In this document: one piece after another, positions 3,953-48,998 of the stretch
How the letters are laid out: the number at the start of each line of letters is the position of its first letter
How positions within the stretch are numbered: the stretch's first letter is position 1
Origin: Thermodesulfobacteriota bacterium
GTDB taxonomy: Bacteria > Desulfobacterota > Binatia > UBA9968 > JAJDTQ01
Assembly (NCBI GenBank): GCA_965116635.1
Contig: OZ220710.1
Span: 2,335,467 to 2,399,466 of the forward strand
Length of the DNA stretch: 64,000 nucleotides
Direction of reading: 5' to 3'
Made by a program: the position numbers and the translations under genes
The notes under the pieces: model-generated
Databases searched by the model: none
Seen by the model: the letters and a program-made list of their open reading frames with translations, nothing else
Told to the model about the DNA's origin: nothing

Positions 3953-6246
3953 GCAAAGCGGCGAAACACCAGGTTATCGGCAAGTCCCAGCGGCGGGTGG
4001 ACGGCATCGTCAAGGCAACCGGCCAGGCCGTCTACGCCATGGACCTGGAGCTGCCGGGCATGCTCCACGCCAAGGTCCTGCGGAGCCCCTTCCCCCACGC
4101 GCGGCTGGTGCGCATCGACGCCACCAGGGCGGCGGCGCTGCCGGGAGTGGTGACGGCGCTCACCCGCGAGACCCTGGACGGCATGAACCCCTACTTCGGC
4201 TCGGCCTACAAGGACCAGACCGTGGTCGCCCTGGACAAGGTCCGCTACGACGGCGACCCGGTGGCCGCGGTGGCGGCGATTGACGAAGAGACCGCGGCCG
4301 AGGCGCTGACGCTCATCGAGACGGAATACCAGGAGCTTCCCGCGGTCACGGACATCGCCGACGCCATCGCGCCGGACGCCCCGCTGGTGCACGAGGTGGT
4401 AGCCGAGGCCGACGAGCTGCACGGCCACGCCTACCGGGTGCCCGAGGAGTTCCGCGGCACCAACATCTGTTACGCCTACGACTACGCCCGGGGCGACGTC
4501 GAAAAGGGCTTTGCGCAGGCCGACGAGATCTTCGAGGACACCTTCACCTTCCCCCAGATCCAGCACTACCCGCTGGAGCCCCACATCACCATCGCCCGGG
4601 TGGAAGACGGCCACGTGACCCTGTGGGCCTCGACCCAGGACCCGTTCACGCTGCAACGCCACATCGCCGAGTTCTTCTCCATCCCCATCAACCGGGTGCG
4701 GGTCATCGTGCCCCACGTGGGCGGCGCCTACGGCGGCAAGCTGTCGGTGAAGAACGAGCCGCTGGCGGCGGCGCTGGCCTGGAAGGCCGGCCGGCCGGTG
4801 AAGCTCACCCACACCTCCGAGGAGACCTTCCGCACCATCACCCGGCACCCCGCACGCTTCCGCATCAAGACCGGCGTCACCCGGGCCGGGAAGCTGGTGG
4901 CGCGGGAGTGCGAGGTGCACATGGGGACGGGGGCCTACGCTGACTACGGCCCGCGGGTGTCCCAGAAGGCCGGCTACCGGGCGCCGGGTCCGTACCGCAT
5001 CCCCAACGTCAAGGTCGACGCCTACACCGTCTACACCAACGCCGTGCCCGCGGGCGCGTTCCGGGGCTTCGGCACGCTGCAGGTCACCTGGGCCTACGAG
5101 TCCCAGATGGACATGATCGCCCGCAAGCTCGGCATCGATCCGGTGGAGTTCCGGGTCCGCAACCTGCTGAAGAAGGGCGACTCCTACACCAAGGGCGACA
5201 CCCCGGTGGACTGCGACCTCGAGGCGGGCCTGCGGCGCACCGCCAAGGCCCTGGGCTGGGGCAAGCCGAAGCAGGCGCTGAACCGCGGCATGGGCCTGAG
5301 TTGCTGCATGAAGGACGGCGGCGGCACCTACAAGGTGGCGTCGGCGGCCATCAAGCTCAACTCCGACGGCAGCGCGGTGCTGTTCACCGGCACGGTGGAG
5401 ATCGGCCAGGGTTGCCGCACCGCCCTGGCCCAGGTGGCCGCCGAGGAGCTGTGCCTGCCCTACGAGGCGGTCACCGTGGCCCAGCTCGACACCGACTCCA
5501 CCCCCTACGACGCGGCCACCAACGCCAGCAGCTCCATGGTCATCATGGGCCTGTGCGTGGAGCGGGCGGCGGCCGAGTTGAAAAAGCAGTTGCGCCGGGC
5601 CGCGGCCAGGCTGTTCAAGTGCAAGGCCGACAAGATCACCTTCAAGAACGGCCACGTCAGCGCGGGCAAGGGCAAGCGCCTGAGCTACGAGGAGGTGCTC
5701 AACCGCAAGTTCGGCTCCAAGGGCGGCGATCTGCTGGCCAAGGGAACCTACCAGGACATCCACAGCAAGAAGGCCGTCCTGGGATCGCCTACCACCTTCT
5801 GGGAGACGAGCTGGGGCGGCGCCGAGGTGGAAGTGGACCCGGAGACCGGCGTGGTCAAGCTGCTGAAGTACATCTCCACCGCGGACGTGGGCAAGGCCAT
5901 CCACCCGCTCCAGTGCGAGGGCCAGGACGAGGGCGCCGTGATGTTCGCCATCGGCCACTCGCTCCTGGAGGAGATGCAGTACGACAACGGCCACCTGCTC
6001 AACCCCAACGTCATCGACTACCGGCTGCCGTCGTTCCACGACATCCCGGAAACCTTCGAGACCATCATGGTGGAGGACGGCAACGGCCCCGGCCCCTACG
6101 GCGCCAAGGGACTCGGCGAAGGCGGCCTCATGCCCGTGGCCCCCGCCATCGGCAACGCCATCGAAGACGCCGTCGGCGTACGCGTGCGCGAGCTGCCGGT
6201 GACGCCGGAGCGGATGTGGCGGGCGCTGCGGGAGAAGTATGCGTAG
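3949..6246 (+). CDS. xanthine dehydrogenase / aldehyde oxidase / CO dehydrogenase family molybdopterin-binding large subunit
   Basis: 765 aa. The N-terminus (VIGKSQRRVDGIVKATGQAVYAMD), the GAFRGFG motif and the overall layout are typical of XDH-family Mo-pterin subunits. No small or medium subunit is adjacent. Confidence 0.85.
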   Translation: MSKAAKHQVIGKSQRRVDGIVKATGQAVYAMDLELPGMLHAKVLRSPFPHARLVRIDATRAAALPGVVTALTRETLDGMNPYFGSAYKDQTVVALDKVRYDGDPVAAVAAIDEETAAEALTLIETEYQELPAVTDIADAIAPDAPLVHEVVAEADELHGHAYRVPEEFRGTNICYAYDYARGDVEKGFAQADEIFEDTFTFPQIQHYPLEPHITIARVEDGHVTLWASTQDPFTLQRHIAEFFSIPINRVRVIVPHVGGAYGGKLSVKNEPLAAALAWKAGRPVKLTHTSEETFRTITRHPARFRIKTGVTRAGKLVARECEVHMGTGAYADYGPRVSQKAGYRAPGPYRIPNVKVDAYTVYTNAVPAGAFRGFGTLQVTWAYESQMDMIARKLGIDPVEFRVRNLLKKGDSYTKGDTPVDCDLEAGLRRTAKALGWGKPKQALNRGMGLSCCMKDGGGTYKVASAAIKLNSDGSAVLFTGTVEIGQGCRTALAQVAAEELCLPYEAVTVAQLDTDSTPYDAATNASSSMVIMGLCVERAAAELKKQLRRAAARLFKCKADKITFKNGHVSAGKGKRLSYEEVLNRKFGSKGGDLLAKGTYQDIHSKKAVLGSPTTFWETSWGGAEVEVDPETGVVKLLKYISTADVGKAIHPLQCEGQDEGAVMFAIGHSLLEEMQYDNGHLLNPNVIDYRLPSFHDIPETFETIMVEDGNGPGPYGAKGLGEGGLMPVAPAIGNAIEDAVGVRVRELPVTPERMWRALREKYA

Positions 6247-9144: not shown

Positions 9145-9277
9145 CGTTCGAGATGGCGCCCTTCGACTTCGCTTCGCTACGCTCAGGGCGAACGGCAATT
9201 GAGTCAAGGAACCCTGATCATACTCCGTTCGCCCTGAGCGTAGCGAAGCGAAGTCGAAGGGCGCCATCTCGAACGGT
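9145..9277. repeat. Repeat family A: near-perfect palindrome, two inverted ~52-bp arms (ccgttcg...cttcgacttcgcttcgctacgctcagggcgaacgg) around a ~31-bp spacer
   Basis: Read directly. The left arm at 9145-9194 is the reverse complement of the right arm at 9226-9277. The same core recurs at 11907, 12097, 15632, 40868 and 50701. Confidence 0.85.
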
Positions 9278-11699: not shown

Positions 11700-11906
11700 C
11701 CCCTCCCCCTTTCGGCCTGACGTTCAATTGGGGGATGTATCCCGATTCCGCCACGGCCCGCAAGGCCACGGCAATCGTCAGGAACCGGGATGACGGTTCG
11801 AATCACGCGCTCGGGATTGACCAGTGTCGTGTCCCGAAAATTCCTGCGATTGGTTGCGCACGATTTTGCTGTCGGCAAGGCGCGATGACTTGCAGGGGGG
11901 CGACCA

Positions 11907-11946
11907 CCGTTCGTCCTGAGCGTAGCGAAGCGAAGTCGAAGGGCGC
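11907..11946. repeat. Repeat family A, single arm
   Basis: ccgttcgtcctgagcgtagcgaagcgaagtcgaagggcgc. Confidence 0.8.
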
Positions 11947-11964
11947 AAAATTCCGACAGGGTGC

Positions 11965-12181
11965 TAGTGTGGTGTCTGGTTAATTCGCGTCATAATATGC
12001 GGAGCATTTTTTGTCGTCGGCAAGGCGCGATGACTTGTAGGGGCGACCTGCGGTCGCCCTTCGGTGGCGGGCACCACGCGAGGAAGAGCAACGCAGCCGC
12101 CCTTCGACTTCGCTTCGCTCAGGATGCGCGGAGCGAAAAAGACCCACGGATTATGATGCGAATTAACCAGACACCACACTA
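11965..12181. mobile_element. MITE-like nonautonomous element (family C) with ~32-bp terminal inverted repeats and TA target-site duplication; carries nested copies of repeat families A and B
   Basis: Left TIR tagtgtggtgtctggttaattcgcgtcataat (11965-). Right TIR attatgatgcgaattaaccagacaccacacta (-12181). It is flanked by TA and has no coding capacity. The interior shares ttgtcggcaaggcgcgatgac with the element at 39315-39476. Confidence 0.75.
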
Positions 12182-13075
12182 GGTGCCGGCGGCGTGGCGT
12201 TCTTCCCGGAGCGCGGCGATCCGGTCCTCGAGGGGGGGATGGCTGGCGAAGAGCATCCGCAGACCGCCCTTGCGGACGCCGGCGATCCCCATTGCCTCCA
12301 ACTGTTCCGGCATGTGCTCGGGCTCCACGCTGCGTTGGAGCGCCTCGAGGGCGCCGATCATGCTGGCCTTGCCGGCCAGATACGCGCCGCCAGCGTCGGC
12401 CCGGTACTCGCGCCGGCGCGAGTACCAGGAGACCACCAAGCTGGCCAGGATACCGAGCAGGATCTGCGTGACGATCACGGTGACGAAGTAGCCCATGCCG
12501 TAGCCCCCTTCGCCGTCCCGGTGGAGCGCGCGGTCCACGACGTATCCGATTACGCGGGAAAGGAAGATCACGAAGGTGTTGAGAACGCCCTGGAGCAGGG
12601 TCAGCGTCACCATGTCGCCGTTGGCCACGTGGCTCACCTCGTGACCCAGCACGGCCGAGGCCTGATCCGGCTTCATGGTCCGCAGCAGTCCCGTGCTCAC
12701 CGCCACTAGTGAGTTGTTGCGGCTCGGGCCCGTGGCAAAGGCGTTGGGCTCCGGGGAATCGTAGACCGCCACCTCGGGCATGGCGATGTTCGCGGCCCGG
12801 GCGTAGTTTTGCACGGTGTTGACAAGCCAGATCTCGGTGTTGTTTTGGGGCTCATCGATGACCGTCAATCCCATCCATCTCTTGGCCGTCCACTTGGAGA
12901 TGCGCAACGAGATGAACGCGCCGCCCATGCCGAAGATGAAGGAGAAGGCCAGCAGCGGCCAGAAGTCGATGCCGTATTGAAAAAGCAACCACTCAAGGCC
13001 GAGTACACGGAGCGCAACGGCCAGCACGAAAACGATTGCAAGGTTGGTGATCAGAAAAAGAAATACGCGTTTCAT
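12179..13075 (-). CDS. htpX: protease HtpX homolog (M48 family zinc metalloprotease)
   Basis: N-terminal TM helices. HEXXH in GHEVSHVANGDM, typical of HtpX. The stop codon TAG (12179-12181) lies inside the MITE terminal repeat. Confidence 0.85.
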   Translation of the reverse strand: MKRVFLFLITNLAIVFVLAVALRVLGLEWLLFQYGIDFWPLLAFSFIFGMGGAFISLRISKWTAKRWMGLTVIDEPQNNTEIWLVNTVQNYARAANIAMPEVAVYDSPEPNAFATGPSRNNSLVAVSTGLLRTMKPDQASAVLGHEVSHVANGDMVTLTLLQGVLNTFVIFLSRVIGYVVDRALHRDGEGGYGMGYFVTVIVTQILLGILASLVVSWYSRRREYRADAGGAYLAGKASMIGALEALQRSVEPEHMPEQLEAMGIAGVRKGGLRMLFASHPPLEDRIAALREERHAAGT

Positions 13076-30398: not shown

Positions 30399-30535
30399 TC
30401 AGGGCTAGGGGCGACCGCGGGTCGCCCCTACGGGGATTCATCGCAGCGCAATAGGTCAGGGGCGACCGCGGGTCACCCCTGCGGGGCACGGGTAGGGGCG
30501 ACCCGCGGTCGCCCCCTGACCGGATTCCCGCCGCA
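30399..30535. repeat. Repeat family B: three tandem GC-rich palindromic units (taggggcgaccgcgggtcgcccct) between convergent genes
   Basis: Copies at about 30406, 30463 and 30501 with irregular spacing. The same palindrome recurs at 36856-36930 and inside the MITE at 12035. Confidence 0.8.
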
Positions 30536-36855: not shown

Positions 36856-36930
36856 GCGGACCCTGTAGGGGCGACCCGCGGTCGCCCTGCCGGGGCCGCC
36901 GCCACAAGGGCGACCGCGGGTCGCCCCTAC
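36856..36930. repeat. Repeat family B: two inverted GC-rich palindromic units
   Basis: gtaggggcgacccgcggtcgccc ... agggcgaccgcgggtcgcccctac. Confidence 0.8.
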
Positions 36931-36964
36931 ACGCATACCCCCTTGCCTCGCGGTAGATTCCCGA

Positions 36965-39289
36965 CTACTCGGACGGGCGCTTGGTGTCGAGCATCCCCAG
37001 AAATATCTTCTCCGCCGTCACCGGCAGGTCCTTGATGCGCACGCCCACGGCGTCATCCACCGCGTTGGCGATGGAGGGCGCCACCGGGATCAGCGAGGTC
37101 TCGCCGATGCCCTTGGCGCCGAACGGGCCGTTCTTGTGCGGCACCTCCACGGCGATGGGCGTGATCACGTCGGGCATGTCGCCCAGGGCGGGCAAGACGT
37201 AGTCCACGAGATTGGGATTCACCAGGATCCCGTTGTCCCACACCATCTGCTCGAACAGCGCCTGGCCCAGGCCGGTGATGGCGCCGCCCACGAGCTGCTG
37301 CTGGCAGCCCAGCGGCGTGATCACCCGGCCCACGTCCACTGCCGTCGCATGCTTCAGCACCCGAACTCTGCCCGTGTCCTTGTCAATCTCCACCTCGCTG
37401 CCCCCGGCGCCCACGAACCAGAAGGACGAGGTGGTCTTGTCGCCCGTGTCGGGGTCCACGGTGCTGGTCTTCACCTCGCCGCGCCCAACCAGCGTGCCTC
37501 CCTGCATGCCGAAGTGGTTGAACAGCACCTCGCGGATATCCAGGGCGTTCTCCCGGAAAAGGACCTTGCCGCCCTCCATGCGCGTCTCCTCCAACGGCAC
37601 CCCGTGCTCTTCGGAGACGAACTTGCGGAGCTGCTCGCACAGGTCCAGGGACGCCAGCTCCAGCGCCTTGCCCATGTGGAAGGTGGAACGGCTCGACGAA
37701 GTGGTGAGATCGTAGGGCACCACGTCCGTGTCCACCCCCAGCACCGACACCTGATCCAGGGAGATGCCCAAGGTGTCCGCCACGATGGCGGCCATGGCCG
37801 TATCCGAGCCCTGGCCCATCTCCACCGTGCTGGTGAACACGTTGACGCTGCCGTCCTCGTTGAGCTTGATGGCGGCGCACGAGATGGACGGCGTAATGGT
37901 GGCCTTGATGAGCGCCGCCAGCCCCCGGCCGCGCACCTTGGAAGGATCGTCCGGCGCCGGCATCGGCTCGCCCCACTTCATCTCCTGGGCGACCTTCTCC
38001 AGGCAGCCCTTGACCCCGATGCTCCAGAGCTTCTCGCCGGTGACGAACTCGTCGCCCTCGTCGTAGATGTTCTGCATCCGCAGCTCGTAGGGGTCCCGGC
38101 CGAGGGCCTTGGCGATGATGTCGGTCTGCGACTCGCTGGCCCAGGCCGACTGGGACACGCCGAAGCCCCGGAACGCCCCCGCCGGCGGCTTGTTGGTATA
38201 CACCGACTTGGCGTCGATCTTCACGTGGCTGAACTTGTAGGGACCGGCCGCGGTGTAGGCCGACTTCTTGGCCACCCGGGGGCCGATCTCCGCGAACGCG
38301 CCGGTGTCGAGGAAGACCTCCGCTTCCCGCGCGTGAAAGGTGCCGTCGGCCTTGACCCCGGTCTTCATGCGGATGAACGCGGCGTGCTTGGTGACGGTGT
38401 AGAACACCTCTTCCCGGCTCAGCAGGATTCGCACCGGGCGCTTGGCCTTCTGGGCCAGGGCCATGGTCAGCGGTTCGATCTTGGGATAGACCTTGCTGCC
38501 GTAGCCGCCGCCGAGATACGGCACCATGATGCGGATCTTCGAGACCGGCATTTTGAAGATGTTGGCGAGCTGGGTGCGCACCACGAACGGGTTCTGGGTC
38601 GTGGACCACACGTTCACGCGCCCGTCGGGCTGGAACGCCGCGATGCAGCCGTGGGGCTCCAGCGCCACGTGCTGGGTGGTGGGCAGGATGAAGGTGTCCT
38701 CGAAAACGTGGGCGCATTCGGCGAACCCCTGCTCGATATCTCCCTTGCGCAGCTTGAAGTGGGTGCAGACGTTGGTGTTCTCGATGGGCTTCAGCTCCGC
38801 CAGGTCGGCGAAGCCATGCTCCGGTATGCGCACGGTCTCGTGCACCAGCGTGGCGTCCTCCTTGACCGAGTCCTGCACCTCCATCACCGGCGGCAGGTCC
38901 TCGTACTCCACCACGATGAGGTTCGCCGCCTCCTCGGCGGCTTCCCTGGTCTCCGCCGCCACCGCCGCCACCGGATCGCCCACGTGCCGGACCTTGTCCA
39001 CCGCCACGATGGTCTGGTCCTTGAACACCGGGCCGTAGTAGGGCTCGATGCCGGTGCCCTGGACCACGTCGTCCTTGGTGTAGACCGCCACCACTCCGGG
39101 CACCTTGAGGGCCTCGGACGCGTCCACGTAGCGGATCCACGCGTGCGCCACCGGGCTGCGAAGAACGACCCCCTCCAGGACCCCGGGCATCTTCATGTCC
39201 GCCAGGTACGCGGCCCGGCCCGTGAGCTTGGCCTGGTAGTCCAGACGCTGTCCGTCCTGTGCGCTCCGCGGCCTCTCGCTTATCGCCAT
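36965..39289 (-). CDS. xanthine dehydrogenase / CO dehydrogenase family molybdopterin-binding large subunit (CoxL-like)
   Basis: 774 aa with GAFRGFG and the XDH-family layout. Lies downstream of the small and medium subunit genes on the same strand. Confidence 0.85.
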   Translation of the reverse strand: MAISERPRSAQDGQRLDYQAKLTGRAAYLADMKMPGVLEGVVLRSPVAHAWIRYVDASEALKVPGVVAVYTKDDVVQGTGIEPYYGPVFKDQTIVAVDKVRHVGDPVAAVAAETREAAEEAANLIVVEYEDLPPVMEVQDSVKEDATLVHETVRIPEHGFADLAELKPIENTNVCTHFKLRKGDIEQGFAECAHVFEDTFILPTTQHVALEPHGCIAAFQPDGRVNVWSTTQNPFVVRTQLANIFKMPVSKIRIMVPYLGGGYGSKVYPKIEPLTMALAQKAKRPVRILLSREEVFYTVTKHAAFIRMKTGVKADGTFHAREAEVFLDTGAFAEIGPRVAKKSAYTAAGPYKFSHVKIDAKSVYTNKPPAGAFRGFGVSQSAWASESQTDIIAKALGRDPYELRMQNIYDEGDEFVTGEKLWSIGVKGCLEKVAQEMKWGEPMPAPDDPSKVRGRGLAALIKATITPSISCAAIKLNEDGSVNVFTSTVEMGQGSDTAMAAIVADTLGISLDQVSVLGVDTDVVPYDLTTSSSRSTFHMGKALELASLDLCEQLRKFVSEEHGVPLEETRMEGGKVLFRENALDIREVLFNHFGMQGGTLVGRGEVKTSTVDPDTGDKTTSSFWFVGAGGSEVEIDKDTGRVRVLKHATAVDVGRVITPLGCQQQLVGGAITGLGQALFEQMVWDNGILVNPNLVDYVLPALGDMPDVITPIAVEVPHKNGPFGAKGIGETSLIPVAPSIANAVDDAVGVRIKDLPVTAEKIFLGMLDTKRPSE

Positions 39290-39314
39290 GACACGCTCCT
39301 CTGGAACATCACGT

Positions 39315-39476
39315 TAGTGTCCTGTCCGGCCAATTCGCATGGTAATCTGCTGGTCCCTTTCGCCGTCAGCTGCGTTGCTCTTCCTCGCGTGGTGCCCGCT
39401 ACTGCTCGTCATCGCGCCTTGCCGACAACAAAAATCCTGCGCATCTTACCATGCGAATTGGCCGGACAGGACACTA
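39315..39476. mobile_element. MITE-like element (family C), same family as 11965-12181, TA target duplication
   Basis: TIRs tagtgtcctgtccggccaattcgcatggtaa / ttaccatgcgaattggccggacaggacacta. Sits in the coxS-coxL intercistronic space. The right TA is part of the coxS TAG stop. Confidence 0.75.
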
Positions 39477-39935
39477 TCCCCGGGCCACGCTTCGGAGGGC
39501 CTGCATGATTTCCTGGTAGCAGCCGCAACGGCAGAAGCTGCCGCCCATGTAGCTCTTGATCTGTTCGTCGTCGGGATGGGGGTTCTCGTCCAGCATGGCC
39601 TTGGCCGTGAGCAGGAAGCCCGAGGTGCAGTAGCCGCACTGCAACGCCCCGAACTTCATGAACGACTCCTGCAACGGGTGCAGCCGGTCGCCTTCGGCCA
39701 ACCCCTCCACGGTGGTGACCTTGCGGCCGCCGGCGTCCACCGCCAGCACCGAGCAGGCGCTCACCGGCTTGCCGTCCACCAGCAGCGTGCAGGCGCCGCA
39801 AACCTGTATGTCGCACCCCAGCTTGGCGCCGGTGAGGCCCAGCTCTTCCCGGACCACGTCGAGCAGCGTGCGCCAAGGCTCCACCTCCACCTGGCAGGAC
39901 GTGCCGTTGACCTCCATGGTGATGGCTTTCTTCAT
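39474..39935 (-). CDS. (2Fe-2S)-binding small subunit of XDH/CODH family enzyme (CoxS-like)
   Basis: Two 2Fe-2S cysteine clusters: CGACTLLVDG and CGYCTSG...CRCGCY. Confidence 0.85.
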   Translation of the reverse strand: MKKAITMEVNGTSCQVEVEPWRTLLDVVREELGLTGAKLGCDIQVCGACTLLVDGKPVSACSVLAVDAGGRKVTTVEGLAEGDRLHPLQESFMKFGALQCGYCTSGFLLTAKAMLDENPHPDDEQIKSYMGGSFCRCGCYQEIMQALRSVARG

Positions 39936-40810
39936 GCCGCCGATCCCCTAGCCTGTTGGTGAACCTTGCGGGCAAGACGCCGCACCAGCGCCGCCACCAT
40001 CTCGCGTTTGTAACGCTCCGAGCCGCGCAGGTCGTCCATCGGGTTGCATTCCTCGGCCGCGCTACGGGCCGCCTGTTCGAGATTCTCGTCCGTCAGCCGT
40101 TGGCCTTCCAGCGCCGCCTCCGCTCCGCGCGCCCGCATGGGCGTGGGGGCGACGCAGCCGAGCCCGATGCGGACACCACCGCAGGTGCCGTCGCCCGGGT
40201 CCACCGACATCCGCACGGCCACGCCGATGCAGGGCTTGTCCACCACCGAGCTGCTGGAGAACCGGACGTAGTCCACCGCGCTGTGAGCCGGCAGCGGCGG
40301 AATCACTACGTGGGTCAGCACCTCGTCGTCCTGCAACTGGGTCTCGTAGTAGTCCACGAAGACATCTTCCAGCGGCAGGGTGCGTCCGCCCGAGGTATTG
40401 GCGATGCGCACGGTGGCATCCAGGGTGATGAACACGCACGGCAGGTCGGTCAGCGGCTCCCCCGAGGCGATGTTGCCGCCCACCGTGGCCATGTTGCGCA
40501 CCCGGATGTTGGCCACGTCGTGCTCCAGCTCGCACAACACCGGCAGGCGCTCCGCCAGCAGGCTCGAAGTCTCGATGTCGTGATGGGTGACGAGCGCGCC
40601 GATGACCAGGTCGTCGCCGGACTCCTCGATGCGCCGCAGCTCGTCGATCTTCTTGATGTTGATCAGCGCCTCCGGTTGGAGGAAACCCTGCTTGAGCAGG
40701 ATCGTCAGCGAGCTGCCGCCGGCGAACACGCGCGCTTCGCCGCCATATTGCTTCAACAGGCCGCAGGCTTCGGCCACGGTGCCGGGTTCCAGGTATTCGA
40801 AGTGTTTCAT
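39932..40810 (-). CDS. FAD-binding medium subunit of XDH/CODH family enzyme (CoxM-like)
   Basis: N-terminus MKHFEYLEPGTVAEA, FAD_binding_5 plus CO_deh_flav_C layout. Overlaps coxS by 4 bp. Confidence 0.8.
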   Translation of the reverse strand: MKHFEYLEPGTVAEACGLLKQYGGEARVFAGGSSLTILLKQGFLQPEALINIKKIDELRRIEESGDDLVIGALVTHHDIETSSLLAERLPVLCELEHDVANIRVRNMATVGGNIASGEPLTDLPCVFITLDATVRIANTSGGRTLPLEDVFVDYYETQLQDDEVLTHVVIPPLPAHSAVDYVRFSSSSVVDKPCIGVAVRMSVDPGDGTCGGVRIGLGCVAPTPMRARGAEAALEGQRLTDENLEQAARSAAEECNPMDDLRGSERYKREMVAALVRRLARKVHQQARGSAA

Positions 40811-40867
40811 GATCGCCGGGAAACGTGGTTAACGGTTTCGGGTTTCACGGGCAGCCGGCCCGTGGCG

Positions 40868-40985
40868 GTCCTTCGACTTCGCTTCGCTACGCCTGTCCTG
40901 AGCCTTGTCGAAGGGCTCAGGACGAACGGAACCTAGCATTGTGCCACCGTTCCTGAGCGTAGCGAAGCGAAGTCGAAGGACGCCA
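40868..40985. repeat. Repeat family A palindromic element
   Basis: ccttcgacttcgcttcgctacgc ... ccgttcctgagcgtagcgaagcgaagtcgaaggacgc. Confidence 0.85.
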
Positions 40986-41000
40986 TGCATCACCGACGCC

Positions 41001-42449
41001 TCAGATATAGTCCACTTTGTCGACTCCGGGCACCAGGATCTTCCGATAATACTCGTTGTCGTTGAGCGGCATGGTGGCATCGATGCCCCACACTGCGGTG
41101 GTGCGCGGCGCCGGCGCGGAAGGATCCAGCGTCGACATGGCCAGGTTGGGGACGATGATGATGTCCTTGTCCGGCTGGACCCGGGTGTTGATGGCCCATT
41201 CCACGTCCACCGGATCGTGCACGTTGATGTCCTCGTCCACCACCACCACCCGCTTGAAGCCCGCGCCGGTGGCCAGCAGCGCCAGGATGACGTTACGGGC
41301 TTCGGCGTCGTGGCGCTTGCGCATGGAAACCACCGCATGGTGCCGGAAGGTGCCGCCGGCGCTGACGCTGAAGTCCTTCACCTCCGGGGTGATGGTGGAC
41401 ACCGTGCGGTAGACCAGCGCCGCGTTGGCGCACTCGATCAGCGTATGGTTCTCGGTCACCGGCATGCCCGTGAGGCAGGTCTGGTAGATCGGGTCCTTGC
41501 GCATGGTGATGGCAGTGACCTGGATCACGGGCGCCTGCTTGCTCTCGCTGTAGGTCCCGGGATACTCGCCGTAAGGGCCGTCCGACACCCGCTCGCCGGG
41601 TATGGTCACCCCCTCGATCACCACCTCCGCGTGGGCCGGCACGTCCACGTCGATGGTGTCGCACTTGGTCAACTGTACCGGCGCGCCGCGCAAACCGCCG
41701 GATACCGCGAACTCGTCCACCCCGTACGGCACCCGCGCCTGGGAACCGATGATGATGGCCGGGTCGACGCCGATGGCCGTGGCCACCTCCAGCCCCTCGC
41801 CCCGGTCCTCGGCCTTGAGGATCATGCGGCCCAGGTGGTGGTCCGGCGGCGCCCACAGGGACAGCTTGTCCTTGCCCAGCCGCAGCATGCGGTGAATGGA
41901 TACGTTGGCAATGCGGGTGTCCGGATCCTTGCCGATCTGCACGCCGATGGTGACGTAGGCGCCGCAGTCCTTCTCGGAATGCACCGCGATGGGAATCTTG
42001 TCGAGGTCGATGTCGTCACCGGTCCAGCGGACCTCCTTGACCGGACCCGTCGGCACCATCTCCGAGGGGATGCGCTGGTCCTCGAGGGTCAGGTAGCGCT
42101 CCAGCAGCTTGTCCTCGGTGACTCCCAGCCCCAGGGCCACCAGCCGGCGGGTGGCGTAGAGCGCCCCGAGCACACGCCAGTCGGGATGGCCCTTGACGTT
42201 GTTGTACAACAGCGCGGGGCCGCCGATGTCGGAACTCTTGCGGATGCCGGCGGCGATCTCGAAGCGCGTGTCCACCTCTCGATTCACCTCCAGCAACTGG
42301 TCCTCGCGCTCCAGCACGTCAAGGAATTCTCTCAGGTCTTGATGCAAAGCAGGTCTCCCGTATCCATGGGTGTAGGCAAAGTGTCTAATTACCAAAAGGC
42401 CTATGGGGAGTCTACCGTTGACACAGCCGCCCCTTGAAGGTAGGCACAA
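41001..42449 (-). CDS. UbiD family (prFMN-dependent) decarboxylase
   Basis: LREFLDVLEREDQLLEVNREVD at the N-terminus and overall UbiD layout. The start is uncertain; TTG after GGGAGA is possible. Confidence 0.8.
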   Translation of the reverse strand: MCLPSRGGCVNGRLPIGLLVIRHFAYTHGYGRPALHQDLREFLDVLEREDQLLEVNREVDTRFEIAAGIRKSSDIGGPALLYNNVKGHPDWRVLGALYATRRLVALGLGVTEDKLLERYLTLEDQRIPSEMVPTGPVKEVRWTGDDIDLDKIPIAVHSEKDCGAYVTIGVQIGKDPDTRIANVSIHRMLRLGKDKLSLWAPPDHHLGRMILKAEDRGEGLEVATAIGVDPAIIIGSQARVPYGVDEFAVSGGLRGAPVQLTKCDTIDVDVPAHAEVVIEGVTIPGERVSDGPYGEYPGTYSESKQAPVIQVTAITMRKDPIYQTCLTGMPVTENHTLIECANAALVYRTVSTITPEVKDFSVSAGGTFRHHAVVSMRKRHDAEARNVILALLATGAGFKRVVVVDEDINVHDPVDVEWAINTRVQPDKDIIIVPNLAMSTLDPSAPAPRTTAVWGIDATMPLNDNEYYRKILVPGVDKVDYI

Positions 42450-46706: not shown

Positions 46707-48959
46707 ATGACGAAACCGAAAATCGTTGGCACTTCCGTTCCGCGGGCCGAGGGGCCGGACAAGGTCACCGGGCGCAGCCGGTATGCCGCCGACATCCCGC
46801 GCGCAGGGCTTCTCTGGGGCAAGATCCTCCGAAGCCCGCATCCTCACGCCCGCATCCGCGGCATCGACGCAAGCCGGGCCAGAAAGGCGCCCGGGGTCCG
46901 GGCCGTGGTCACCGGCCGGGACGTGCCGAACCACTTCATGGGCAAGCAGATCCGGGACCTGCCGGTGCTGTGCTGGGACCGGGTGCGGTATGTCGGCGAC
47001 CGGGTGGCGGCGGTGGCGGCGGAAACCGCCGAGGCGGCGGAGGCCGCACTGGGCCTCATCGACATCGACTATGAGATCCTACCGGCGGTGTTCGATCCGG
47101 TAGCCGCCACCGAGCCCGAAGCGCCGCTGCTGCACGACGACGTCGCCGCCTACGATGGCGCGCCGCGCGAACGCCTGGCCACGGACGTGCGCAACGGACT
47201 CACCCGGCTGAGCTGGAGCAAGGGGGACGTGGAGCGGGGATTCCGCGAGGCGGATGTGGTGCTGGAGCACACCTTTCGAATACCCGCGCGCCATCAGGGC
47301 TACCTGGAGCCCCATGCCGGGCTCCTGTCCATCGATCCGGACGGCCGCATCCAGGTCTGGGCATCAACCAAGGACCCCTTCCGCACCCGCCGGATGCTGG
47401 CCGACACCATCGGCGTCGAGCATGCCCGCGTTCGCGTCCATTCCGTGAACGTGGGCGGGGAGTTCGGCGGCAAGGGCGACGCCCGGGACCTGCCGGCGGC
47501 GTTTTTCCTGGCCCGCGAGTCGGGACGGCCGGTGAAGATCGTCATGACCTACGCCGAAGAACTGACCGCCAGCAACCCGGACGAGGCCACGGTGATAACC
47601 GTCCGCACCGGCGTGAAGCGCGACGGCCGCATCGTCGCGCGCCGTCTCAAGGCATGGCACGCGGGCGGCGCCTACGGCGGCCTCAAGGCCAGCGCCTCCT
47701 TCGCCACCTGGCACTACGCCGGCGGCCTCTACCGGGTTGAAAACGCCTCGTTCGAGTTCCTGCAGATCTACACCAACACCACTCCCGGGGGTTATTACCG
47801 GAGCCCCGGCTCCATCCCCACCTTCTTCGCGCTGGAGTCGCACACCGACATCATCGCCCGGGAACTGGGCATGGATCCCGGCGAATTCCGGCTGCGGAAC
47901 GTGCTGCGCGACAACGAGGAGGACGCCATCGGCAAGCGCCTCCCCGGACTGCAGGTCCACTCGGTGCTGGCGCGGGCACTGGAGGCAGCGGACTGGCACG
48001 CGCCCCGGCCCGGCCGCGGGGTGGCCATCTACGGGCGGCACATCTCCGGCGGCGAGACCGGCATCGCCGTAACCGCCGAGGCCGACGGGAGCCTCACCGT
48101 ACTCAGCCCCACGGTGGACCAGGGAACCGGTACCCACACGATCCTGCGCCAACTCGTGGCCGAGCAGATGCAGTTGGCGCTGGAACAGGTGCGAGCGGTG
48201 ACGGGCGACACCGACACGGTCCCGTACGACACCGGCGCCCGTGCCAGCCGGGTGACCTACGTCGCCGGTCTTGCCGTGGAGCGCGCCTGCAATGAACTGC
48301 GCGACAAGCTCGCGGCCCACGCCGCGCGCATGCTGGAGTGCGACCCCGTGGACGTGGCCTACGCCGACGGCGCCTTTTCGCTGCGCACGGATCCACGACA
48401 GCGCCTCTCCCTGGCGCAGGTGGCGGCACGGCATCCGGACGACCGTACCGTGACCGTGGAAGAAGACTTCCGCTACCCGGACGAGACCACCTACGTGTGC
48501 GCCCAGGTGGCGGAAGTGGAGGTGGACCCCGAGACCGGCGCCACCCGCGTCGAGCGCATCATCACCGCCCACGACGTAGGCACGGTCATCAACCCCGTCA
48601 CCCACCAGGGCCAGATCGACGGCGGCGTCATCATGGGCCTGGGCCAGGCCGTGATGGAAGAGATCACGCTGGACAACGGCAAGGTGGCCAACGCCAACCT
48701 GGGCGACTACAAGCTCCCGGGCATCCGCGACATCCCGCGCCTGGAAACCGTGCTGGTGGACTCGGAGGGCGGGCTCGCGCCCCACGGCGCCAAGGCCATC
48801 GGCGAGTTCGCCAACAACAACCCCCCGGCGGCCATCGCCAACGCCGTGGCCGACGCGGTCGGCGTGCGCCTTTTCGAGATTCCGGTGACCGCGGAGAAAG
48901 TGTACAGTGGCCTGCGAGAACGGGACGGGGACCGTGGCGGGCACGAGTCGGACGGCTGA
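46707..48959 (+). CDS. xanthine dehydrogenase family molybdopterin-binding large subunit (third paralog, orphan)
   Basis: 750 aa. The N-terminus IVGTSVPRAEGPDKVTGRSRYAAD is XDH-family typical. Confidence 0.85.
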   Translation: MTKPKIVGTSVPRAEGPDKVTGRSRYAADIPRAGLLWGKILRSPHPHARIRGIDASRARKAPGVRAVVTGRDVPNHFMGKQIRDLPVLCWDRVRYVGDRVAAVAAETAEAAEAALGLIDIDYEILPAVFDPVAATEPEAPLLHDDVAAYDGAPRERLATDVRNGLTRLSWSKGDVERGFREADVVLEHTFRIPARHQGYLEPHAGLLSIDPDGRIQVWASTKDPFRTRRMLADTIGVEHARVRVHSVNVGGEFGGKGDARDLPAAFFLARESGRPVKIVMTYAEELTASNPDEATVITVRTGVKRDGRIVARRLKAWHAGGAYGGLKASASFATWHYAGGLYRVENASFEFLQIYTNTTPGGYYRSPGSIPTFFALESHTDIIARELGMDPGEFRLRNVLRDNEEDAIGKRLPGLQVHSVLARALEAADWHAPRPGRGVAIYGRHISGGETGIAVTAEADGSLTVLSPTVDQGTGTHTILRQLVAEQMQLALEQVRAVTGDTDTVPYDTGARASRVTYVAGLAVERACNELRDKLAAHAARMLECDPVDVAYADGAFSLRTDPRQRLSLAQVAARHPDDRTVTVEEDFRYPDETTYVCAQVAEVEVDPETGATRVERIITAHDVGTVINPVTHQGQIDGGVIMGLGQAVMEEITLDNGKVANANLGDYKLPGIRDIPRLETVLVDSEGGLAPHGAKAIGEFANNNPPAAIANAVADAVGVRLFEIPVTAEKVYSGLRERDGDRGGHESDG

Positions 48960-48998
48960 ACCGGTCGCGGCCCGTCCCGCAGCCAAGGGAGGATCGAC

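Follow-up and report, generated by a model that had tools for sequence, protein, structure and literature searches.

The genes for the small and the large subunit of a Mo hydroxylase are separated, in the 64,000-nucleotide stretch of Thermodesulfobacteriota DNA analyzed here (the window), by a small TA-flanked insert that borders directly on a stop codon, which raises the questions of what this insert is, why it lies where it does and what it does to the expression of the downstream gene. The earlier note on this DNA took it for a MITE and assigned it to the same family as a second copy elsewhere in the window. It proposed that a structured insert of this kind could attenuate or decouple expression of the large subunit, and that the association of both copies with stop codons reflects either a preference for targets such as CTAG or purifying selection against other sites.

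The Insertion and Its Empty Site

The 162-bp TA-flanked stretch between the small and large subunit genes has the sequence and the coordinates that had been given for it. Window positions 39315-39476 comprise a TA, a 158-bp element and a second TA, and the body of the MITE (39317-39474) is described here on the minus strand, which is the strand transcribed with the operon. The left terminal inverted repeat arm (39317-39345, plus strand, GTGTCCTGTCCGGCCAATTCGCATGGTAA) and the right arm (39446-39474, minus strand; TTACCATGCGAATTGGCCGGACAGGACAC when read on the plus strand) are exact reverse complements over 29 nt, for which dinucleotide shuffles of the window gave zero matches. The perfect terminal inverted repeats measure 29-31 bp, and together with the flanking TAs the palindrome extends to 36 nt with 94% complementarity. 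Between the arms lies the centre of the element (39351-39440), which reads GTCGGCAAGGCGCGATGAC in the sense of the operon mRNA and contains the 19-mer GTCATCGCGCCTTGCCGAC at 39408-39426. The 158-bp body harbors no transposase gene, and its sole ORFs are short frame-0 readthroughs.

The closest orthologous operon, L121, carries an empty site and differs from the window there by exactly the element plus one TA. The empty site reads GGGA TAG CGTGATGTTCCGAAGGAGCGTGTC ATG, the filled site in the window GGGGA TA[158 bp]TA ACGTGATGTTCCAGAGGAGCGTGTC ATG, and since a single TA in L121 corresponds to TA-element-TA in the window, the TA flanks represent a true target duplication, as had been supposed. 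The left copy of the duplicated TA (39315-39316) lies at the downstream end of the element on the mRNA. The right copy (39475-39476) provides, on the minus strand, the T and the A with which the small-subunit stop codon begins, so that the TAG of the 2Fe-2S subunit gene (39476 to 39474) is composed, in agreement with the earlier reading, of the target-duplication TA and a G contributed by the element's terminal base pair.

On the plus strand the target of this copy reads T-TA...TA-T, and C-TA-T in the empty ortholog, i.e., it is not CTAG. Because the small-subunit gene ends in TAG in all four of the orthologs (4/4), the ancestral stop codon of the 2Fe-2S gene was most likely TAG, with an ancestral TAA as the alternative, and the target was most likely 5'-ATAG-3' on the gene strand, the G of the downstream copy having later mutated to A. 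An identical insert is found in a metagenome contig with an identical CoxS; contig L001 has the same insertion and ends ~120 nt beyond the element, within the large-subunit gene.

The Host Operon

The insert lies in an operon on the minus strand, in which the FAD-binding medium subunit gene (coxM-like, 39932-40810), the 2Fe-2S small subunit gene (coxS-like, 153 aa, 39474-39935) and the molybdopterin (Mo) large subunit gene (coxL-like, 774 aa, 36965-39289) are each confirmed by Pfam, the medium subunit gene overlapping the start of the small subunit gene by 4 nt. The coxM-like gene is neighbored by a gene for a UbiD-family decarboxylase (41001-42449, minus strand), and the region 36965-42449 as a whole comprises this decarboxylase and an XDH-family Mo hydroxylase in the order M-S-L. 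The operon had been described as XDH/CODH-type, and the first half of this designation is retained while the second is not: the large subunit contains neither the AYXCSFR motif of form I nor the AYRGAGR motif of form II CO dehydrogenases, and the operon proteins score far below the cutoffs of all NCBIfam equivalogs, the best being 4-hydroxybenzoyl-CoA reductase alpha and XdhA. A bona fide aerobic CO dehydrogenase was rejected on these grounds. As judged from its sequence, the operon encodes a hydroxylase of the XDH family, for which the "cox" names are used loosely, and the pairing of UbiD with a Mo hydroxylase suggests an aromatic or heterocyclic substrate rather than CO.

In close orthologs of the operon (CoxS identity 86-95%), a short spacer separates the small from the large subunit gene; it measures 20-43 nt and is free of the element in L117, L120 and L121. 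The insertion lengthened this spacer from 24 to 184 nt. The Shine-Dalgarno sequence of the large-subunit gene (AGAGGAG, 39296-39302, minus strand) is kept 13 nt downstream of the insertion, and L121, which lacks the insert, has the same Shine-Dalgarno and local spacer sequence.

Small repeats have colonized the gaps between the genes of this operon again and again. Repeats of the GTCATTCCCGCGAGAGCGGGAATCC type are present in the orthologs L117 (1340-1501), L118 (1115-1501 and 1962-2080) and L121 (1294-1501), where they separate the FAD gene from the 2Fe-2S gene, two genes that share the above-mentioned 4-nt overlap in the window; L118 has such repeats in the spacer ahead of its large subunit gene as well.

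A Repeat Family of Candidatus Binatia

The family was sought in 185,579 species-representative genomes with the shared 19-mer as probe, and at least 115 stretches with this 19-mer were found. Among the matches listed, all come from Candidatus Binatia or from MAGs labelled Deltaproteobacteria, Thermodesulfobacteriota or Syntrophobacterales; several matches from short-read MAGs lie within 100 nt of a sequence end, and the window is 87-92% identical to several of the family-bearing loci over kilobases, which points to a Binatia-type bacterium as its source. Ninety-two complete copies, corresponding to 82-92 independent insertion loci, could be delimited among the matches listed. They are 159 bp long in 56 cases and 183 bp long in 16, the latter with an extra GC hairpin, and a few variants are longer. 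TA is found at 85 and 86 of 94 ends (~92%), and for several further copies the orthologous locus of another species is empty. CTA stands at the left border of 72/92 copies and TAG at the right border of 78/92, which places ~80% of the insertions in CTAG; the proposed preference for CTAG is thereby confirmed for the family, but it does not hold for the copy between coxS and coxL.

The other full copy in the window (11967-12179, minus strand) has a 213-bp body with TA on both sides and a CTAG target, and it directly adjoins the TAG that ends an M48 peptidase ORF, just as the coxS-coxL copy adjoins that of the 2Fe-2S gene. It has the inverse chromosomal orientation, as had been noted, belongs to a different arm subfamily and contains two REP-like insertions. 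The arms of the two copies differ, each pair being internally complementary, while long exact stretches are shared in the centre; both the identification as a MITE and the membership of the two copies in one family hold. A partial copy, consisting of the right half (GC hairpin, core and right arm; ~11815-11963, minus strand), adjoins the full copy.

Across the family, positions 5-28 of the arms are hypervariable, and changes in one arm are mirrored in the other: both partners have changed in 27/32 arm pairs, and pairing is kept in 98.4% of cells (55 copies). This covariation arises because each subfamily uses the ends of its own insertion sequence (IS) lineage. The centre (about positions 36-112) is near-invariant across genomes and arm subfamilies, and it is kept in 10/10 copies that were found without reference to it.

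The ends of the MITE re-create CTAG and are themselves hit by new copies or whole ISs, resulting in tandem or nested arrays that share a TA (window 11815-12181; L115 2540-2755 and 3787-3975; L130 1-96; the ends of L069, L043 and L017). An alpha/beta-hydrolase gene in L115 lies between two inverted copies, in a composite-transposon-like arrangement. A related genome carries a 218-bp family copy in the region L099 4287-4598, while none is present at the matching window positions 48910-48983, where the window has no CTAG. Orthologous right-half elements (GC hairpin, core and right arm) lie immediately 5' of a gene start (..GACACCAGGAGGACCCATG) in L055 (~4060-4160) and L058 (~410-510), and a promoter-like TTGCCG...CATATT spacing was seen, by eye only, in some subfamilies.

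Other small repeats are intermingled with the family. REP-like GC hairpins (GGGGCGACCnnnGGTCGCCCC) are clustered in the window, with three at ~30.4 kb (30400-30520) and two right after the large-subunit stop (36862-36947). The same hairpin, or its variant GGGCGGGTTTGAAACCCGCCC, makes up the 24-nt insert that distinguishes the 183-bp class from the 159-bp MITEs, and it also marks the left edge of the truncated right-half MITEs. Another palindromic repeat (CGCCCTTCGACTTCGCTTCGCTACGCTCAGGGCGAACGG with its complement) occurs by itself at 9157-9263, is also present inside the 11967-12179 copy and recurs in the Binatia loci L065, L099 and L100.

The reading frame that starts at base 1 of the element (GTG) runs uninterrupted from end to end of most copies on either strand (e.g., window 11961-12182), namely in 41/54 and 35/54 of the 159-bp copies and in 14/16 and 13/16 of the 183-bp copies for the two strands, respectively. 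As this frame ends at the border TAG, gene callers can be expected to emit spurious proteins of 53-73 aa. The family repeats also break assemblies, and the annotation of Binatia MAGs should mask the family.

Parent Insertion Sequences of the IS630 Family

A metagenome scan with the arm pattern, leaving aside the MITE interior, returned 11 stretches, including complete ISs. Two of these, of 1144 bp (L122 181-1324) and 1154 bp (L130 96-1249, inserted beside a MITE end), are flanked by C-TA...TA-G, and a third IS630-type element (L125) is partial. L122 and L130 contain one ORF each of ~360 aa. The L122 transposase matches the NF033545 IS630 family transposase model with 264 bits (cutoff 100) as well as Pfam DDE_3 and HTH_32/HTH_29; the profile scan was run on the L122 ORF only, and the L130 ORF is 53% identical to it over 360 aa. 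Pairwise, the transposases of L122, L130 and L125 are ~50% identical (47-53%, tblastn). The parent ORFs cross the right inverted repeat and end in ...CAC TAG, in which the stop codon consists of the duplicated target TA and the next target base, G.

The ends of these ISs link them to the MITEs. The 21 terminal nt of the 11967-12179 copy and its subfamily are identical to the right end (IRR) of L130, and those of the most abundant MITE arm subfamily to the right end (IRR) of L125. The arm of the coxS-coxL copy (GTGTCCTGTCCGG...) has the common frame GTGTnnTGTC...AATTCG, and none of the recovered IS ends matches it better than 19/28; a partner IS with GTGTCCTGTCCGG ends was not recovered among the IS elements from the metagenome scan. 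The centre of the MITE shows no similarity to the IS interiors. In two metagenome sequences (L126 1092-1177 and L132 1515-1720), the same arm type encloses a different centre, GTCATTCCGGC...GCCGGAATCC, so the arms can carry other cargo.

Neither the window nor the 934 kb of related genome loci contains an IS630 transposase gene, and a tblastn search of the window for the recovered transposases gave no hits. Within the 934 kb, a search for autonomous elements by TIR pairs up to 4 kb apart, generic inverted repeats of 0.7-2.6 kb and all-against-all megablast recovered only MITE pairs, REP-like repeats and orthologous synteny.

Association With Stop Codons

The survey of genomic copies that the earlier note had called for shows that 35/92 delimited copies abut the TAG stop of a gene, 13 with the left end and 24 with the right end, including 2 with both; gene stops were assigned by a GC-frame test, by which the genes confirmed by Pfam in the window are recovered. 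Free CTAG sites in the same loci served for comparison, of which 51 lie at gene stops, 104 are intergenic and 65 lie inside genes. Stops account for 51/155 (33%) of the non-genic free sites as compared to 38% for the element, so that there is no excess (Fisher p=0.49), whereas they make up 51/220 (23%) of all free sites, relative to which the element is enriched (p=0.009). The lack of an excess over non-genic sites, combined with an excess over all sites, indicates a CTAG preference together with the loss of insertions inside genes; target preference and purifying selection, which had been offered as alternatives, thus act together. Stop codons make up one third of the harmless CTAG sites. CTAG itself is seven-fold depleted in the surveyed DNA (417 observed, ~3014 expected; 65% GC genome), and about half of all CTAGs are found at MITE borders.

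The element begins with G, and a gene whose stop codon supplied the target TA therefore regains a TAG and encodes an unchanged protein. From these site counts and border sequences, we conclude that the stop-codon bias is a by-product of CTAG preference and purifying selection, with no need for an additional attraction to stops, and that the association is helped by the terminal G that restores TAG. With filled and empty sites and with parent elements at hand, the family offers a worked example of how small TA-targeting transposons pile up on stop codons.

Transcript Structure and Expression of the Large Subunit

That the insert would be structured on the mRNA agrees with secondary-structure prediction. 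In the mRNA sense it is predicted to fold with -94.1 kcal/mol (z=-12), as opposed to -82.8 kcal/mol for the antisense strand, and within an mRNA context of 281 nt it is predicted to fold autonomously with the UAG at the base of the stem. The proposed attenuation or decoupling of the large subunit, by contrast, finds no support in the sequence, since neither a terminator nor a sigma-70 promoter was detected and the coxL Shine-Dalgarno sequence is kept. The main hairpin is not followed by the U tract of an intrinsic terminator; the sole terminator-like site is a marginal internal 5-bp stem with U5, and shuffles give 0.5 such sites. A sigma-70 promoter scan of the element found none, and no IHF consensus was found in the element by eye. 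Rfam 15 gave no match at the gathering score in the whole window and none at E<=10 in 39200-39600. A sigma-54-like TGGYRC...CTGCT in the centre was also considered and rejected by eye, as its spacing is wrong and it is disrupted in the 183-bp class.

The effect of the insert on large-subunit expression is most likely small, with little polarity, because in the modeled structure nearly all of the spacer is paired and the two ends of the insert come to lie side by side, and because the insertion left the ribosome-binding site intact. The transcripts of Correia elements fold into long hairpins that are cut by RNase III in Neisseria (PMC2229807), and by analogy the 31-bp perfect duplex at the base of the present hairpin could be a plausible RNase III substrate.

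Origin of the Insert and Alternative Readings

Taken together, it is highly probable that the insert is an IS630-type MITE, that its stop-codon bias is a by-product and that its effect on expression is small. The element would be a non-autonomous miniature derivative of the IS630/Tc1-mariner-family ISs that populate Candidatus Binatia genomes. A cognate IS630-family transposase, provided in trans, presumably binds both identical arms, excises the element and pastes it into a TA, preferably one within CTAG, which is duplicated in the process. The copy between coxS and coxL would have inserted at the TA of the stop codon, ancestrally TAG, that ends the 2Fe-2S gene, where the terminal G restores the codon by the same device with which the parent ISs end their own transposase ORFs, and on the mRNA the predicted hairpin (~-94 kcal/mol) would rejoin the two original junctions. 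What speaks against this explanation is that the parent of its own subfamily was not recovered (19/28), that the target of this copy is not CTAG and that no IS630 transposase gene is found locally. The family is previously undescribed and abundant in Candidatus Binatia but is conventionally IS630-derived, and on the evidence of its sequence the insert appears as an ordinary, well-tolerated selfish insertion and not as a new kind of system.

A plain neutral MITE does not, however, predict everything that is seen in this family. Copies between co-directional genes favor the orientation of the coxS-coxL copy by 31:11 (p=0.003; 35:12 before the removal of possible duplicates), a ratio that depends on heuristic gene calls. 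The centre is near-invariant although it is unrelated to the parent ISs, and its C/G ratio is 0.62 in the mRNA sense, which is thus G-rich, and 1.6 in the other sense. The favored strand folds ~11 kcal/mol better across the family, as it does in the coxS-coxL copy, and three positions of the inner helix alternate between U.G, C.G and U.A, so that pairing is kept in the favored strand only. These observations, together with the precedent of Correia elements and RNase III, argue for a reading in which the element has been co-opted, or the family shaped, as a transcript-level module on polycistronic mRNA with a favored orientation, serving either as an RNase III site that uncouples the stabilities of the cistrons or as an anti-polarity device against the loading of Rho on an untranslated spacer. 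Yet the orthologous operons L117, L120 and L121 work without the element and with their short spacers, and an excess of G.U over A.C mismatches in the arms (46 vs. 16), which might seem to point in the same direction, stems from four positions of one subfamily. The metagenome relatives L126 and L132, moreover, carry the same arms around other centres. The passive loss of harmful orientations could equally give the same bias with no need for a benefit; a simple reading is that the C-rich orientation would invite Rho-dependent polarity and be lost. We regard a transcript-level module as unlikely. A MITE lineage shaped for life in operons, in which centre and inner helix make the hairpin harmless or useful in one direction, opposite copies are purged and the centre has been recombined onto the ends of several IS630 lineages, is likewise a tentative proposal at best; if it were true, the hairpin could, for example, block the loading of Rho or provide a defined RNase III site. 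For the IS630-type MITE, the orientation bias and the conserved centre leave the small question of how operons tolerate such inserts.

It is far less likely still that the element acts through a translated mini-ORF, which would run from an ATG in the core over ~32 codons (MTSSGGYHARKSNAADGEKD...) exactly to the TAG of the distal border, so that translating ribosomes would unfold the 3' arm and pass to the next gene. Such a frame is open to the border TAG in 61/90 distinct copies, is preserved in the 183-bp class, in which the insert adds 24 nt, has an AAGG 5 nt upstream of its ATG and is sense to transcription in the favored orientation. However, the 3' arm is equally often open in frame 1, and the arm is the C-terminal coding end of the parent transposase (...RINQTPH and ...ICETPH, each followed by the stop), which explains the open frame, so that its openness was rejected as coding evidence; in addition, the variable positions of the centre are non-synonymous and fall in a hairpin loop, and eight copies contain internal stops. 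The least probable reading, a REP/REPIN element that a RAYT/IS200-type enzyme mobilizes as single-stranded DNA, or else a stand-alone gene for a structured small RNA, could appeal to the long hairpin, to the compensatory arm changes and to the true REP-like GC hairpins that occur in the same genomes and are even inserted into the element, but it is contradicted by the TA duplication, the CTAG targeting, the identity of the ends with those of IS630-family ISs (21 nt, in other arm subfamilies) and the lack of an Rfam match in the window and of a promoter in the element.

Comparison With Known Systems

As an IS630-type MITE, the element can be compared with several groups of small bacterial repeats. 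ERIC/IRU and other enterobacterial repeat units resemble it as small palindromes that lie inside operons and are transcribed into hairpins, while on the ERIC/IRU side the ends are different, there is no CTAG targeting and no IS630 partner has been identified. The Correia/NEMIS elements of Neisseria are closer in organization, as they are ~100-155 bp long, have long terminal repeats and TA ends, are often co-transcribed with their neighbors and give hairpin transcripts. In contrast to them, the Binatia element, which has no sequence relation to Correia, has no recognized IHF site or outward promoter, and its cleavage by RNase III is a candidate feature by analogy. To our knowledge, no parent transposase family is known for Correia elements, whereas one is identified for the Binatia element.

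The targeting behavior is that of the IS630 family. PMC2170065 attributes TA duplication, CTAG preference (citing Tenzen and Ohtsubo, 1991) and HTH-mediated repeat binding to IS630/Tc1-mariner elements, and for IS870 the CTAG target supplies the stop codon of the transposase (Fournier, 1993, cited in PMC13630536). IS630 of Shigella sonnei and IS870 of Agrobacterium vitis share with the Binatia family the duplication of TA and the preference for TA within CTAG, and the parents L122, L130 and L125 are like IS870 in that their transposase ORF is terminated by the TAG of the target. The element in the window differs from both ISs, as it has no transposase and consists of two copies of the same end around a foreign centre.

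The closest counterpart as a system is RUP of Streptococcus pneumoniae, which forms with its proposed partner IS630-Spn1 the classical bacterial pair of MITE and IS (PMC2229807). Both are short and non-coding, lie at TA, have repeats that match those of a resident IS630-family IS and are presumably mobilized in trans. Compared to RUP with its 107 bp, the Binatia elements are longer (158-183 bp), their arms of ~30 bp fall into many covarying subfamilies that correspond to several IS lineages only ~50% identical to each other, and the family combines a strong preference for CTAG with a centre that is unrelated to the IS.
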